From positions 1 through 39,276 of the forward strand of contig JYFJ02003642.1 of the NCBI GenBank assembly GCA_000934665.2: a stretch of 39,276 nt of DNA, written 5' to 3'. A program made the position numbers and the translations under genes. Under the pieces are notes generated by a model. It ran no database searches. It was not told the origin of the DNA and saw only the letters and a list, made by a program, of their open reading frames with translations. Position 1 is the stretch's first letter, and each line of letters opens with the position of its first letter. This document shows, piece by piece, positions 11,777 through 34,748 of the stretch. The DNA is from Catajapyx aquilonaris (Eukaryota).

Positions 11777-14095
11777 TCATCTGGGTCTGATCTTCATGGC
11801 TGCTCTTCTCAGAGAGTAACTCCATGTTCTCTTCCAGCTATTGCCCCAGATGACACCTTGATCTTGTTGGCCGTGCTCTCCCTTGAGATGAAGTCCGTTC
11901 AGATTGGAACGGAGGCATGCATTGTACCACCAGCCACCCTTGAACATCTCTGCGCAGTTCCCACTATAACCATCGTTGTCCCTGTCTCTTGTGGAGAAGG
12001 CCCTGCCATTGTGCTGGGCAAGATAGTCCCCCGGGTCTCCTCCTCCATGTCCCTTCTGGTACCCTCCCACAGTGACCCTGTACTTCTCCTCTTCATCTTG
12101 GACCACAAAAGTGCTGTACAAGGCGACCCTCTTCTCCCCCTCCCAATCCTCCAGGTCAATCCGGAGCATCATCGGAGTGGAAGGGTCACTGGTCAGTCCG
12201 TGGATGCTGTCCAGACCTGTGTAAAGGGGTATGGGACATACACTCTACATATTAAGATCATGAGATTAGTATTAAGACTAGGATTGATGAGGCTTGTACA
12301 GTACAATTAAATAAAATTGGCTTCTATAACTAGCGATGAACCAAAGCGCGATATCCAGATAGTACTTACAAACGCTATTGTCCAGTATGAAAACCGCGAT
12401 TTCTAAAACATCAGTGATTTTCAAGCGCGACTTTTGACTTTTTGACACCTTCCGAAGAAGATGATGCTTTTGCTTTACCATGAGAACGTTCCCCTCTGAG
12501 GAGCAGTGCGTAACCTAGTGGACAATAAAGCAGACTACTTATGGCCGGTCAAATGTTACCAAAAAATCTTTGACCTACGACCTCGGAAAGTGGTCAAAAA
12601 TGGCCGATACTTTATAATGTACAGGCTACATGTGGCAGGTTCAACAGGAACTAGGCACTACACCATCATGTAATCGTCGCGGAAGAATTAGTTTCAAAGG
12701 TTTGTATCATCTATGGTTTGCATGTTAACCCTTTTAAACCATCAAGTGCAGATATTGATATCCGGTGAATGACCGCACGTCCCCACTTTGAATTCTGGTT
12801 CGTTAGGCCTGCCAATCCATTCGTCTTCTGTGATGGTGACAATAAGTGACAAGAGTGCAACTCACCCAGCCAGAACTCCCCTTCCAGATCACCAAACCCT
12901 CTCTTGTAATCTGCCCAATCTCGATTGAAGTCCTCGTGAGACCGGATGTCGTCTCTTCTTTGTATGACCGTCCACCCTCCTCCATCTGTGACCATGTCGC
13001 AATACACCTGTGGACACGAGAGCATGAGTTGGTGACGTAAAATATATTCAGTTAATTCCACATCAAGTAGCCCCAATCATTCCGAGTGAATGCGACCTTT
13101 TTCCGTGAACCTCACCTTGACCATTTTCCCAGAAATGGTCACGGAATACAAGCCAGAAGAGCTGTGTCCTCGTTGCAGAAGGTCGTAGCAATTAGATGGA
13201 GGAATTACGTGGTTCTTAATATCCGTCAACGATGAGGTGATTGTGTCCACTGCATTGCTGGAATGAATTGCACATGTTCAATATTCCATTAAACCACCTT
13301 CTTAATAATTAATTCCGCACTGTTTGCCCGAACACACATAGCTTCATAATGTGGCATGTTGGGAAAGGATAACTTTATAACTGATATTAGGGAGGTTGGC
13401 CCAGCATTGCCTTTCAACCTCCAAGGATAGGAAGGGAAGGAGGCGGCTGTGGCCTATTATACGGAAGCGACCCCGGAATTATCCTAGGAAGACTGTGGAA
13501 AACCACAGAAAACCACGGTCAGGGTTGCTGACCCCGGGATTCGAACCCAGGACCTCCCGATTAGGAGTCGGACGCCTTATTATCCACTATGCCAACCTGC
13601 TTCGGTTGGGAAAGGATAACTGTGATGACATCATCAGGAGTATTATTCTTTTATTTCACCCTTGACTACATTGGTGTCAATAAAACCAGTTGGGTTGACA
13701 GGGGGTTGCTCACTTACCTCAATTTCTCTTCTAATGATTGAATTTCCTTTTTTGATGATTTCACTTCCTCCTTGATTTCTCTCATTTCTTGTGCTGCACT
13801 ATCTGAAAAAAGCAAGAGCATACTCAAAGCACTTTAAAACAAGACTTGACAATCATTATAAATATATATATAGACCCTTATTATTACCTGCTCGAGCAAA
13901 TCCATCCTCCACAGTTTTCATCATTGTTTGTATGGCCAGTTCCAGTCTGTCTATCTGACTGGGTTCCTTTGGGTGGACACCGCGGGGAATGTTTTCGGCC
14001 GCATTGTTTGTGAGGGCCAGGGAATGATTGACCCCTGACAGGAACAACAGGAGGGTGGCCAACAAAGAGAGACCGAAACTGCTGATGTTGGCCAT
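11777..14095 (-). CDS. Secreted fibrinogen-related-domain protein, copy 1 (~335 aa, 5 exons)
   Basis: Exons 14095-13888, 13793-13718, 13257-13116, 13007-12866 and 12216-11777 splice in frame. Signal peptide, coiled coil and FBG motifs [53 protein letters not shown]. Confidence 0.95.
13375..13606 (-). mobile_element. tRNA-derived SINE (shorter copy) in FReD copy 1 intron 2
   Basis: A box TGGCATAGTGG and B box GGTTCGAATCC on the minus strand, 15-bp TSD TGGGAAAGGATAACT (13360-13374 / 13607-13621); homologous to 35874-36164. Confidence 0.9.
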
Positions 14096-14650
14096 CGTCT
14101 CGGAGGATATGCTGCACTCGACTGGATCAAGACGGCTCCTTTCTCCTCAATCCTGTGGGGCGTACTGAATAAATGGTGACATTGGTGACCGCAGATATAA
14201 GTAACTTTTATGGGCAGAGGGCGAGACTTCCTTATCGGAAGAGATGTCAGTGGGTTTTCCCCACCCAACAAATTTCATCAGAAGATCACAAGGAAGGAAG
14301 AGAGATAAAGTCAGCTTGAATTGTAATTCCGGTATTCCAATGAACTCCAGGTCATCATTATAGATTGGTTTCATGTTGGTGCAACATATACATTTCATGA
14401 CTATCTGCCAGCTGGCAGAAGGAAGAGAGGCGAAATTTCATGCACTTCGAACTTCCCTTGCTCACATGAGCATTGGCGTCGTTGTCTGTATGTGCCATGG
14501 GTCAAATGATTTGGGCGTTCGCTTTATTTTTATGCGGAGATAAGCAATGGATGCTTATACATGATGACCTTCATCAAAGTCGGGAGGTAACAGCCGTGTT
14601 CCTCTTTGATTTGATAAGAAGGAAAGTGGTAATATTCTCCAGACTACCAA

Positions 14651-15094
14651 TGTTTCCACCAGCATAATTTTTGTTCTGGACAAAATTTATGCCAAGATAA
14701 TTATGTTTCCTTGACGATTTTTGTGCAGCACAAATAAACACCTGTTCCAACCAGGACAATGTTTGTTCTTTTCACAAAAAGAAACAAAAATGAGCGCTCG
14801 GAAGGGAGCACCCGAAGTTCCGAATGTGTTTTATTTAGACTGAACCCCAGCCTGTCCTGATATCGTGTAGCTTAATTTAAATGTCAATATTGTGCTTGAA
14901 TTATGGCAAAATAATTCCAATAAGTCCGCCGCGGTTGGCCATCTTGTATATTTCCATTTTGTGTCGGGCACAACTATTTTGTGAAAATATCAAAATTTTG
15001 TACTTTGGTATAATTATACCAAACTGTTTGATTTTGTGCTCAATTTTTGTGCTTTTCTTTTTGTGCTCAAAAATTATGCCGGTGGAAACAGGCT
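14651..15094. mobile_element. Degenerate TIR element (probably Harbinger-type MITE)
   Basis: TGTTTCCACCAGCATAATTTTTG at ~14651 pairs with CAAAAATTATGCCGGTGGAAACAGGC at ~15068-15093. The left terminus is eroded. Confidence 0.55.
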
Positions 15095-15134
15095 TTTAAA
15101 CTCAGGTTCTGCTGCAGGTTTAGGGTCGGTGAAC

Positions 15135-33064: not shown

Positions 33065-33273
33065 CGTCTCGGAGGATGCTGCACTCGACTCAATCAGACG
33101 ACGCTCCTTTCTCCTCAATCCTGTAGGGCGTATTGCATAAAGGGTGACATTGGTGACCGAATATAAAACATTATTTGTGGCCAGCAGAGGGCGAGACTTC
33201 CTTATCGGCGGAGATTATATTTCCCAAATCATTAGGAAGAGGAGGCTCGTGGATCGGATGAAGCCACACTCTA

Positions 33274-33839
33274 TACAGGGTGTTTACGACCTAACTTTAC
33301 AAACTTCTAGGGATGATAGAAGGGACCAAGACAAACATTTTTGACATAGGAAACCGTGTCCGGAAACGCCATCTAGAGGGGGTTCATAGACAAGGAATGG
33401 GTGCGCTCAGACTCGTCACGCGTGAGGCGCTAGGCGAGCGGACTGTTTTGTTGATAGATGGCGCTCAGATAGTAAACAAGATTGTGATGTGCCATAACGT
33501 GGCAACAACTGAGCCATCTACCAACTAAAGTCCTCCTCCTAGGAGACGCGCGGATAGTCAACAGCGGTTCTGTTGTTGCCAGGTTATGGCGTATCGCGTT
33601 GTTGTTTACTTACAACGACGCGATACGCCATAACCTGGCAACAACTGCGCGCCATCTATCAACAAAACAGTCCGCTCGACTTGCGCCTCTCGCGTGACGC
33701 GTCTGAGCGCACCCGTTCCTCGTCTATGAACCCCCTCTAGATGGCGTTTCCGGACACGGTTTCCTATGTCAAAAATGTTTGTCTTGGTCCCCTCTATTAC
33801 CCCTAGAAGTTTGTAAAGTTAGGTCGTAAACACCCTGTA
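33274..33839. mobile_element. Tc1/mariner-type foldback MITE in FReD copy 4 promoter
   Basis: ~190-bp TIRs begin TACAGGGTGTTTACGACC, with a TA duplication. The empty site GCCACACTCTACTGGGTG is visible in the copy-3 promoter (~26606-26623). Confidence 0.92.
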
Positions 33840-34748
33840 TACTGGGTGAAAACATCCTTCTTGGCCAGATAATAAGTGATAACCCCGATCACTCGGAAAA
33901 TGTGACGAGGGAAGTGGGCAGAAGAAGGAAGACTGTCTCAAAATACTCCATCTCATGTCGCCGCAGCATCCTTTGGAGGCGGACAAGATCCCGTATCACT
34001 GAGTATATATTCATTCCCCCTAAAGGAAACACTGAAAATAGCAATTATAGCTACTGTTAATGCCTGTTAGAGAATCATATCAGGGCCTAAACCGCCAGAG
34101 GCATCGACGAATTGTTTTCGGATTCAGCGGACCCTAAATAGGCCCCATACAGTAAACTTACGGTCTCTTCTCTGATGTCTACACCGAAATGAGAATACAA
34201 AATTCTCCCAGAAGAAAAGTAATTCCAACAAATATTTGTATATGAAGTAACATTTCATTTTTATTACAGTTCTGTGTACAAAAATGTCAAAATAAAAACA
34301 TGAATAAATATTGGCGCACCACATGTAGCAGGTTTGTAATGTCGATAAAATTATTTATCATAGCATTCATAGGTAATATTTCGGCTTATTATTCTCTCCG
34401 TCCGACCTGTTCCGACCTGATAGTTTGTTTGGATATGGTTTGATAACAACTTGTGAATTCCAATAAACCTGCAAATGGTGACTATCAAAGTAGCTTAAAT
34501 AATCAAATTATCAAAAATTTCAATCGAATACGATATTAGTTCTAGGTTCCGACACCGTTGAACTGAAGGCGCTGCGAGCGGACAGCGATACGAATCAAAT
34601 CAGATCGGTTCTGATGACGCGGATAGGAACGCACCCGCTCAAACAAAGATGGCCGCCGTTCAGACTAGATCAACCCGATTTGTCGCCTTTTACGTCCTCT
34701 AAGCCTGCCCCAGTCACAGGGGTCAGAGGTCACCGCCTGTCAGTGGAA

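Follow-up and report, generated by a model that had tools for sequence, protein, structure and literature searches.

The roles of IL-17-type ligands in arthropods are disputed, with sex hormone, neurotrophin and immune modulator as the competing descriptions. According to PMC11087794, ecdysozoan IL-17s are mainly neurotrophins or neurohormones, and apart from crustacean female sex hormones (CFSHs), which bind IL-17 receptors, no homologue of IL-17 was found in decapods. CFSH is described in PMC6056722 as a 23-amino-acid (aa) signal, a 33-aa precursor-related peptide, the dibasic site KR and a 167-aa mature hormone with cysteines C46, C80, C105, C107, C112, C119, C148 and C150. Both sources describe this crustacean IL-17 branch chiefly as neurohormone, and the functions of CFSH-like paralogues are called unknown in PMC6056722. 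Shrimp CFSH1a and CFSH1b carry consecutive LOC numbers and are thus neighbouring loci (PMC11673531), and tandem IL-17 arrays are reported from marine invertebrates, with two-exon IL-17 genes commonest in mussels (PMC8353272). Here we describe an array in which IL-17-family genes alternate with genes for lectins with a fibrinogen-related domain (FReD), located in a window of 39,276 nucleotides (the whole stretch analysed, contig JYFJ02003642.1) from Catajapyx aquilonaris. GT-AG spliced genes, C2H2 zinc-finger genes, USB1 and an ENPP exon identify the window as animal nuclear DNA. An earlier note on this DNA had proposed that a secreted lectin and a secreted immune cytokine were amplified together as a linked, possibly co-regulated module. 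Our data support the joint amplification and weaken the case for an immune role.

A tandem array of FReD and IL-17-family genes

We found that the array lies on the minus strand and reads, in rising coordinates, F1, IL17A, F2, F3, IL17B, F4 and a non-coding remnant (Table 1). Its intact members are four FReD genes encoding 330-400 aa and two two-exon IL-17-family genes encoding 227 and 217 aa. FReD gene models combined splice motifs with a MAFFT alignment covering all five FReD regions, and these models and Pfam bear out the gene order and coordinates given in the earlier note. All four FReD coding sequences and both IL-17 coding sequences are open, and every intron is GT-AG; judged by open frames, canonical splice sites and the IL-17 poly(A) signals, all six genes look functional. 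The 227-aa spliced IL17A protein that had been proposed was reproduced as 110 + 117 codons separated by a 75-nt GT-AG intron. The intron of the IL-17 genes must be spliced out because it contains an in-frame stop, and the splice junction restores an L-x-P-x-W motif seen in relatives. A short intron in the 5' untranslated region (UTR) of IL17A was considered and rejected, as the 23-nt GT..AG stretch upstream of the ATG is too short for an intron.

Paralogous blocks were identified by self-blastn, which returned 43 and 54 paired matches in two runs. All three sets of paralogous spacer blocks named earlier were recovered, at E values from 1e-12 to 0, and these matches exceed chance by far. The first set joins 16607-18103 to 26903-28378 (84% identity), 26615-27068 to 33840-34315 (86%) and 16613-16761 to 34155-34315 (73%); the second comprises 18330-19008, 22457-23120 and 29107-29692 (74%); the third pairs 16436-16602 with 21525-21750 (74-86%). 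In the direction of transcription the array reads as a periodic series, with a tail, F4, a spacer and IL17B; a tail, F3, a spacer and approximately 620 bp without an IL-17 gene; a tail, F2, a spacer and IL17A; and lastly a tail, approximately 2.2 kb that include a diverged ~162-bp repeat, and F1. The units of F3 and F4 show unbroken homology, at 82-86% identity, that extends across spacer and FReD gene and reaches the IL-17 3'-UTR. Their alignment (22530-26623 with 29107-33282) runs on as 26615-27068 with 33840-34315 and there overlaps the alignment of IL17A with IL17B (16607-18103 with 26903-28378). Since this homology is continuous and overlapping, the amplified unit includes both gene types, as had been suggested, and it extends through both genes and the intergenic DNA with a period of approximately 6.6-7.2 kb.

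Taken together, these data make it probable that the locus is a lineage-specific tandem array in which a two-gene unit of ~6.6-7.2 kb was copied repeatedly by segmental duplication. What we observed directly is the anatomy of the array, the assignment of its genes to families, the periodicity of the homology and the conversion tract described below; the steps that would connect them are as follows. The ancestral unit would have held an IL-17-family ligand gene and a gene for a secreted coiled-coil FReD lectin in the same orientation; followed in transcriptional direction, its parts would be the IL-17 gene, a tail, the FReD gene and a spacer. Unequal crossing-over between paralogous FReD copies is the most likely mechanism of its amplification. 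We infer that the amplified array then lost one IL-17 copy and had another truncated at its edge; the two remaining IL-17 genes would then have been homogenised by gene conversion over their cystine-knot core, and the FReD genes may have swapped segments while diverging in their ligand-site loops and coiled-coil length.

The two incomplete positions differ in content. Unit periodicity predicts an IL-17 gene between the F3 spacer and the F2 tail, where neither tblastn nor self-blastn detected IL-17 gene homology. The element at the opposite edge had been read as the scar of a decayed IL-17 gene; it turns out to contain only UTR and flank, with a polyadenylation signal that matches those of both IL-17 genes. 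No IL-17 coding sequence was detected in it, as tblastn with each exon matched the two genes only (next best E at least 2.8). The array also starts further out than first noted, since a degraded fifth FReD gene (F0) lies beyond F1. What is left of F0 is a portion of exon 1, the coiled-coil exon, an F2-like extra exon (2240-2476), the NCY exon (~1800-1934) and the final 27 codons (304-384); its VYCDM exon is missing. Its position indicates that the array once reached across the zinc-finger genes. Among 23 further translations of open reading frames (ORFs), searched for other interleaved genes, no Pfam family was found.

Table 1. Members of the array and associated segments (positions in the window)
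Feature	Position	Strand	Structure, homology or evidence
F0, degraded fifth FReD gene	~304-2935	-	self-blastn, tblastn, MAFFT alignment
F1, intact FReD gene, 335 aa	coding sequence 11780-14095	-	5 exons: 14095-13888, 13793-13718, 13257-13116, 13007-12866, 12216-11780
IL17A 3'-UTR and downstream tail	16436-16885	-	AATAAA at 16709; homologous to 26903-27199, 34155-34315, 21525-21750
IL17A, CFSH-like IL-17-family gene, 227 aa	coding sequence 16886-17641	-	exons 17641-17312, 17236-16886; 75-nt intron
Gene-conversion tract common to IL17A and IL17B	17057-17505	-	
Spacer directly downstream of F2, non-coding, possibly F2 3'-UTR	18330-19008	-	paralogous to 22457-23120, 29107-29692
F2, intact FReD gene, 400 aa	coding sequence 19025-20778	-	6 exons: 20778-20592, 20522-20426, 20212-19992, 19928-19819, 19724-19583, 19467-19025
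Tail-type sequence upstream of F2, no IL-17 gene before it	21107-21839	-	homologous to IL-17 downstream flanks of other units
Empty IL-17 slot, ~620 bp, between F3 spacer and F2 tail	21840-22456	-	IL-17 gene predicted there by unit periodicity
Spacer downstream of F3	22457-23120	-	self-blastn
F3, intact FReD gene, 330 aa	coding sequence 23717-26414	-	5 exons: 26414-26207, 26134-26051, 25478-25366, 25242-25101, 24159-23717
IL17B 3'-UTR and tail, continuing into F3 upstream region	26615-27199	-	AATAAA at 27021
IL17B, CFSH-like IL-17-family gene, 217 aa	coding sequence 27203-27928	-	exons 27928-27596, 27520-27203; 75-nt intron
Spacer downstream of F4	29107-29692	-	self-blastn
F4, intact FReD gene, 343 aa	coding sequence 30229-33064	-	5 exons: 33064-32857, 32784-32680, 32072-31957, 31837-31696, 30686-30229
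Copy of IL-17 distal 3'-UTR and tail ('scar'), array edge next to USB1	33840-34315	-	AATAAA at 34265; 86% identical to 26615-27068

Several smaller features lie within or beside the array. Approximately 560 bp upstream of F4 (33282-33840) have no counterpart upstream of F3 and break the otherwise continuous homology of these two units. In the interval separating the IL17A tail from F1, a ~162-bp unit is repeated in tandem about four times (15135-15816); the copies are diverged (70-73% identity by self-blastn) and fall below the threshold of Tandem Repeats Finder. A short repeated element, 68-81% identical between copies and probably a small mobile element, occurs downstream of IL17A (16179-16409) and in intron 4 of F3 (24886-25013) and of F4 (31374-31604). 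A tRNA-derived element resembling a short interspersed nuclear element is present in intron 2 of F1 (13424-13606) and again at 35982-36163, between USB1 and a zinc-finger gene; the copies are 88% identical, and Rfam scores a tRNA within each (13526-13596 and 36086-36157). The array is flanked by exons of a USB1/HVSL phosphodiesterase (34503-35750, plus strand), whose region has its first long open frame within ~200 bp of the array end. A word-indexed protein search with the USB1 exon returned a single bird match at 38% identity, of no taxonomic value. Further on, a C2H2 zinc-finger gene with four fingers (36356-37120) and a type I phosphodiesterase/ENPP exon (37443-37973) are found on the minus strand. 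At the other end, a palindromic repeat of ~330 bp (3007-3358 and 6207-6521), which matches its partner in both orientations at 71-72% identity, precedes each of two paralogous plus-strand C2H2 zinc-finger genes (finger exons 4859-5431 and 7069-7440).

Family membership and homogenisation of the IL-17-like genes

We asked whether the two-exon genes belong to the IL-17 family. Pfam IL17 (PF06083) matched the exact exon 2 translation of IL17B at 26.6 bits and that of IL17A at 21.6 bits, against a cut-off of 24; the corresponding second-exon pieces among the ORF translations scored 26.4 and 21.4 bits. The IL17B match covers profile positions 3-80 of 81, and IL17A falls below the cut-off because a loop insertion splits its match. 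No other Pfam family was returned for either exon 2 translation up to E 10. When 1.84 billion representatives were scanned in full with IL17B exon 2 by HMMER, six proteins reached E <= 1e-3 (best 2.6e-7, none at or below 1e-10), the best sharing 43% identity over 93 residues, and all six pass the Pfam IL17 cut-off at 24.0-34.4 bits. The three that carry names are malacostracan: two proteins of the amphipod Trinorchestia longiramus annotated 'Interleukin-17 family', KAF2367424.1 being from this species, and one uncharacterised protein of the lobster Panulirus ornatus (XP_071552294.1).

In structure-based comparisons IL-17 ligands came first. An AlphaFold2 model of IL17B exon 2, built from 8 sequences, had a predicted local distance difference test score (pLDDT) of 79.1. 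Among the Foldseek matches listed for this model, ranks 1-22 were IL-25 or IL-17A/F and PTTH appeared first at rank 23; the four matches at E <= 0.001 were all IL-25. In the ESM Atlas the top cluster was arthropod IL-17 (score 0.93), and 23 of the 30 matches belonged to the IL17 set; IL-17 exon 1 gave no usable match there. A word-indexed protein search with IL17B exon 2 returned no match, nor did NCBIfam, as expected for a prokaryote-oriented library, and a metagenome scan with a single IL-17 protein produced 108 pattern matches, none confirmed. Weak repeated matches of IL17B exon 2 to designed 'Pizza' propellers in a PDB sequence search (~7 bits per stretch) were judged spurious. By sequence, the cystine-knot protein thus belongs to the IL-17 family, as the earlier note had supposed, rather than to spaetzle, noggin or NGF.

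Read by eye from the translations, the precursor layout and its cleavage sites consist of signal, pro-peptide, dibasic site and mature part, with lengths of 22 + 35 + RR + 168 in IL17A and 22 + 36 + RR + 157 in IL17B; the pro-peptide would be cleaved and the mature part secreted. Cysteines of the mature part of IL17A stand at 32, 66, 88, 90, 95, 104, 149 and 151, with an extra one at 4. The eight cysteines and a motif of the N-terminal extension (P...C) are invariant across both window proteins and their crustacean relatives. On the basis of this layout, the cysteines, the decapod statement of PMC11087794 and one decapod match, the IL-17-like genes likely belong to the CFSH clade. The eight-cysteine pattern is not in itself specific to CFSH, because the full knot is also the ancestral invertebrate type (T1A in PMC11087794). 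The label 'cytokine' should be read as IL-17-family ligand, one that is probably CFSH-like. Of the premise that these genes encode immune cytokines, the family membership stands, whereas the immune role is weakened by the crustacean relatives and the CFSH-like layout, since the CFSH branch is described mainly as neurohormone.

The two IL-17 genes share a run of 307 identical base pairs (17363-17057 in IL17A, 27647-27341 in IL17B) that takes in the last part of exon 1, the complete intron and the opening 180 nt of exon 2. Within the wider tract there are 2 differences in 449 bp, while its flanks are ~83% identical. Protein-level selection is argued against as the cause of this identity because the intron is identical too. 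Identity over 307 bp is not expected by chance at the divergence of the flanks, and the run is a gene-conversion tract unless it is an artefact of polishing. The proteins differ in the signal, the pro-region and the loop before the last strand. In that loop, before the last beta-strand, IL17A has an acidic/His-rich run encoded by GAT repeats (16990-17056, minus strand; DNDDDDDAGDHHH) that is missing from IL17B, a length change of microsatellite type within a cystine-knot ligand.

Identity and divergence of the FReD genes

Fibrinogen_C (PF00147) was detected in all eight ORF pieces with a FReD domain, at E values from 1e-19 to 2e-42 (Pfam, 21 ORF translations), and the FReD exons jointly reach profile position 221 of 221. 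The nearest solved structures in PDB are ficolin-2 and ficolin-1 (E 1e-29), FIBCD1 and tachylectin-5A; database relatives, among them barnacle 'techylectin-5B-like' proteins, are at most 44% identical. The products are predicted to be secreted, with a signal peptide, a heptad-rich segment that is probably a coiled coil, and a C-terminal FReD. Collagen-like Gly-X-Y runs were not found in the N-terminal FReD translations, and the N-terminal exons had no Pfam match, including none to an Ig family. Lacking a collagen-like region, they are not ficolins in the strict sense, and lacking an Ig domain they are not mollusc FREPs; the predicted proteins are ficolin/tachylectin-5-like lectins without collagen or Ig domains.

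The genes differ in exon content and in detail. F2 has an extra 74-codon exon that it shares with F0 only. In F4 the binding loop that follows GGWW has 6 additional aa inserted, and exon 2 of this gene contains a 21-nt tandem duplication (32704-32757, minus strand; 2.6 copies, 93% match) that adds one heptad (ERMKSLE) to the stalk relative to F3. Amino-acid differences among the FReDs concentrate around the calcium-site loop and the GGWW...C...NLNG loop, the F4 insertion included. Values of omega were 0.61-0.83 for FReD pairs and 0.80 for IL17A/B. We also compared the intact copies with a substitution-only neutral simulation (2000 per value), in which 0.9-1.3% of FReD coding sequences remained stop-free at a divergence (K) of 0.08 and at most 0.35% at K = 0.12. 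Since four copies are intact where neutrality rarely leaves a stop-free frame, FReD function appears to have been retained.

A maximum-likelihood tree of the FReD domains, rooted with seven database FReDs, some of them on long branches, resolved as (F2,(F1,(F3,F4))) with support of 93/90 and 94/93. Non-coding K, taken over 150 nt upstream, two introns and 200 nt downstream, was 0.159 for F3-F4, 0.232 for F1-F3, 0.228 for F1-F4 and 0.39-0.46 when F2 was compared with the other genes (F2-F4 0.46). Among the spacers, K was 0.18 for U3-U4 and 0.29-0.30 for U2 against U3 or U4. Synonymous divergence (dS) of the FReD domain was 0.14-0.20 for every pair, and that of the N-terminal part was 0.28-0.45 except for F3-F4 (0.17). 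The last FReD exon is a mosaic: F2-F4 are 98-100% identical over the first ~100 nt and 77-79% identical at the 3' end, where F3-F4 reach 93%.

These values bear on which genes travelled together. The flanks of IL17A and IL17B have a K of 0.197, compared with 0.232 for F1-F3 and 0.46 for F2-F4, in a comparison of a few hundred aligned bases each that gene conversion blurs. As the IL-17 pair is about as diverged as F1-F3 and far less so than F2-F4, units in the order IL-17 then FReD appear to fit better than units in the order FReD then IL-17. The pairs that appear to fit the divergences best, with the same blurring by conversion, are IL17A with F1, IL17B with F3, the UTR remnant with F4, and a tail alone with F2.

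Meaning of the linkage and comparison with known systems

Not all of our observations sit easily with repeated duplication of a two-gene unit followed by conversion. The IL17A domain scores under the Pfam cut-off, a fully identical tract could in principle arise from polishing or assembly, and gene conversion blurs every divergence-based dating, as the contrast between FReD-domain and N-terminal dS shows. High omega could reflect relaxed constraint rather than diversifying selection. The physical order of units (F4, F3, F2, F1) does not simply follow the FReD tree, and this departure means that at least one step was not plain duplication of a neighbour. The tract of 307 perfect base pairs is also what mis-polishing could give were the whole array an assembly artefact of uncollapsed haplotypes or mis-joins, but the non-coding DNA of the units is 14-40% divergent, and large indels, intron lengths and an extra exon set them further apart, differences far in excess of allelic variation; the window contains a single N, at 1309. 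We consider such an artefact exceedingly improbable. That the knot protein is instead another ligand (PTTH/Trunk, Spaetzle, NGF or noggin) seems very unlikely, given that IL17 is the sole Pfam family to E 10, that every database relative passes the IL17 cut-off, and that IL-25 fills the significant Foldseek matches ahead of PTTH among the matches listed, in line with the ESM Atlas result.

What the pairing of the two gene types means is a separate question. The IL-17-like genes could encode CFSH-type neurohormones with a role in sexual differentiation or neuroendocrine signalling, and be passengers in a lectin array that has no immune meaning. We regard this as quite possible, if short of probable: all three named relatives are malacostracan, the precursor layout, eight shared cysteines, spacings and invariant N-terminal P and C motif agree, and CFSHs, which bind IL-17 receptors, are the only decapod IL-17 homologues reported (PMC11087794). 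Against this, the best identity to any relative is that 43% over 93 residues, likeness to CFSH is by published description rather than alignment, and the eight-cysteine knot is ancestral, a ninth cysteine is present and the roles of CFSH-like paralogues are listed as unknown (PMC6056722). The alternative of a functional immune module, in which a FReD sensor and an IL-17 signal are co-regulated and were amplified together within one defence pathway, is improbable. It would accommodate the shared orientation, the 786 bp from the IL17B stop to the F3 start, the real co-duplication, the predicted secretion of both product types and the diversifying FReD binding loops, and the reference list of PMC11673531 cites a paper on CFSH regulating the crab immune response. 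The regions upstream of the six genes also contain 17 WGATAR sites in 3 kb, compared with ~7 expected from the window rate; however, this excess is mild, post hoc and drawn from paralogous, non-independent promoters, and offers too little to make a case for co-regulation. A kappaB-type motif was found in none of the six upstream regions of 500 bp. Nor is the pairing obligatory, because the IL-17 gene of one unit has been lost and F1 lacks one downstream, and the crustacean branch is, as noted, chiefly neurohormonal (PMC11087794, PMC6056722).

Linkage by itself requires neither selection nor functional coupling, because unequal crossover between flanking paralogues copies anything that lies between them, and the interleaving is fully explained without selection for linkage. 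We hold it doubtful, and distinctly so, that an IL-17/CFSH-like ligand and a diversifying FReD form a selected, co-regulated unit coupling pathogen recognition to IL-17-receptor signalling, as a neuroendocrine-immune link. If they did, gene conversion would hold the receptor-binding core of the ligand identical while the lectins diversify, and a functional pairing would offer a compact, genetically tractable arthropod case in which a recognition lectin is coupled to an ancient cytokine/neurohormone ligand. Our literature searches, judged by the titles and abstracts listed, found no description of FReD/IL-17 or FReD/CFSH linkage. One supplementary file of PMC8353272 contains no mention of fibrinogen, ficolin, angiopoietin, tenascin or techylectin, and its Table ST2 of neighbouring genes may lie outside that file. 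Irrespective of function, the genes are new members of known families in an array that is real and well delimited, and a poorly sampled lineage thereby gains two intact CFSH-like/IL-17 genes and four coiled-coil FReD genes. The locus is also a caution against taking invertebrate 'IL-17' matches for immune cytokines by default.

Compared with CFSH as described in PMC6056722, the window proteins are of similar total length (227 and 217 aa versus 223 aa) and have the same order of signal, a peptide of ~33-36 aa, dibasic site and a mature part of ~167 aa with the IL-17 domain in it. The eight cysteines are spaced nearly as in CFSH, at 34, 22, 2, 5 and 9 with a final C-x-C of 2 here and at 34, 25, 2, 5, 7 and 2 in CFSH, so that the first spacing, C-x-C-x4-C and C-x-C are identical. 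The nearest database relatives of the window proteins are likewise malacostracan. In contrast, the dibasic site is RR here and KR there, and a ninth cysteine near the predicted mature N-terminus and the acidic/His-rich loop insertion of IL17A set the window proteins apart. With the invertebrate IL-17 family (full-knot T1A of PMC11087794) they share the IL17 domain, the C-x-C...C-x-C knot cysteines, the signal peptide and the C-P-x-x-W motif in place of vertebrate SPW; they differ in a long N-terminal extension, a pro-peptide with a dibasic site, and weak similarity (26.6 and 21.6 bits). The marine invertebrate IL-17 arrays of PMC8353272 are alike in two-exon structure and tandem duplication, whereas here only two IL-17 copies occur, alternating with FReD genes instead of adjoining each other.

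The FReDs have the same C-terminal domain as ficolins, tachylectin-5 and angiopoietin-like proteins, with both disulfide pairs, the D-x-D-N-D calcium-site motif and the GGWW...C...NLNG binding-site region, and their N-terminal signal and heptad-rich segment resemble those of angiopoietin-like proteins. They depart from ficolins and tachylectin-5 in that the His after the second binding-site Cys is replaced by Leu in F1, F3 and F4, and in the loop insertion of F4. Among mixed-family tandem arrays, we found no published counterpart for the FReD and IL-17/CFSH-like pairing in the titles and abstracts that our searches listed. In other respects the locus resembles mixed-family arrays formed by unequal crossing-over, with the same multi-gene unit, truncated edge copies, member loss and conversion tracts beside diverged flanks, and it illustrates how unequal crossing-over may amplify a two-gene unit that is subsequently eroded and homogenised.

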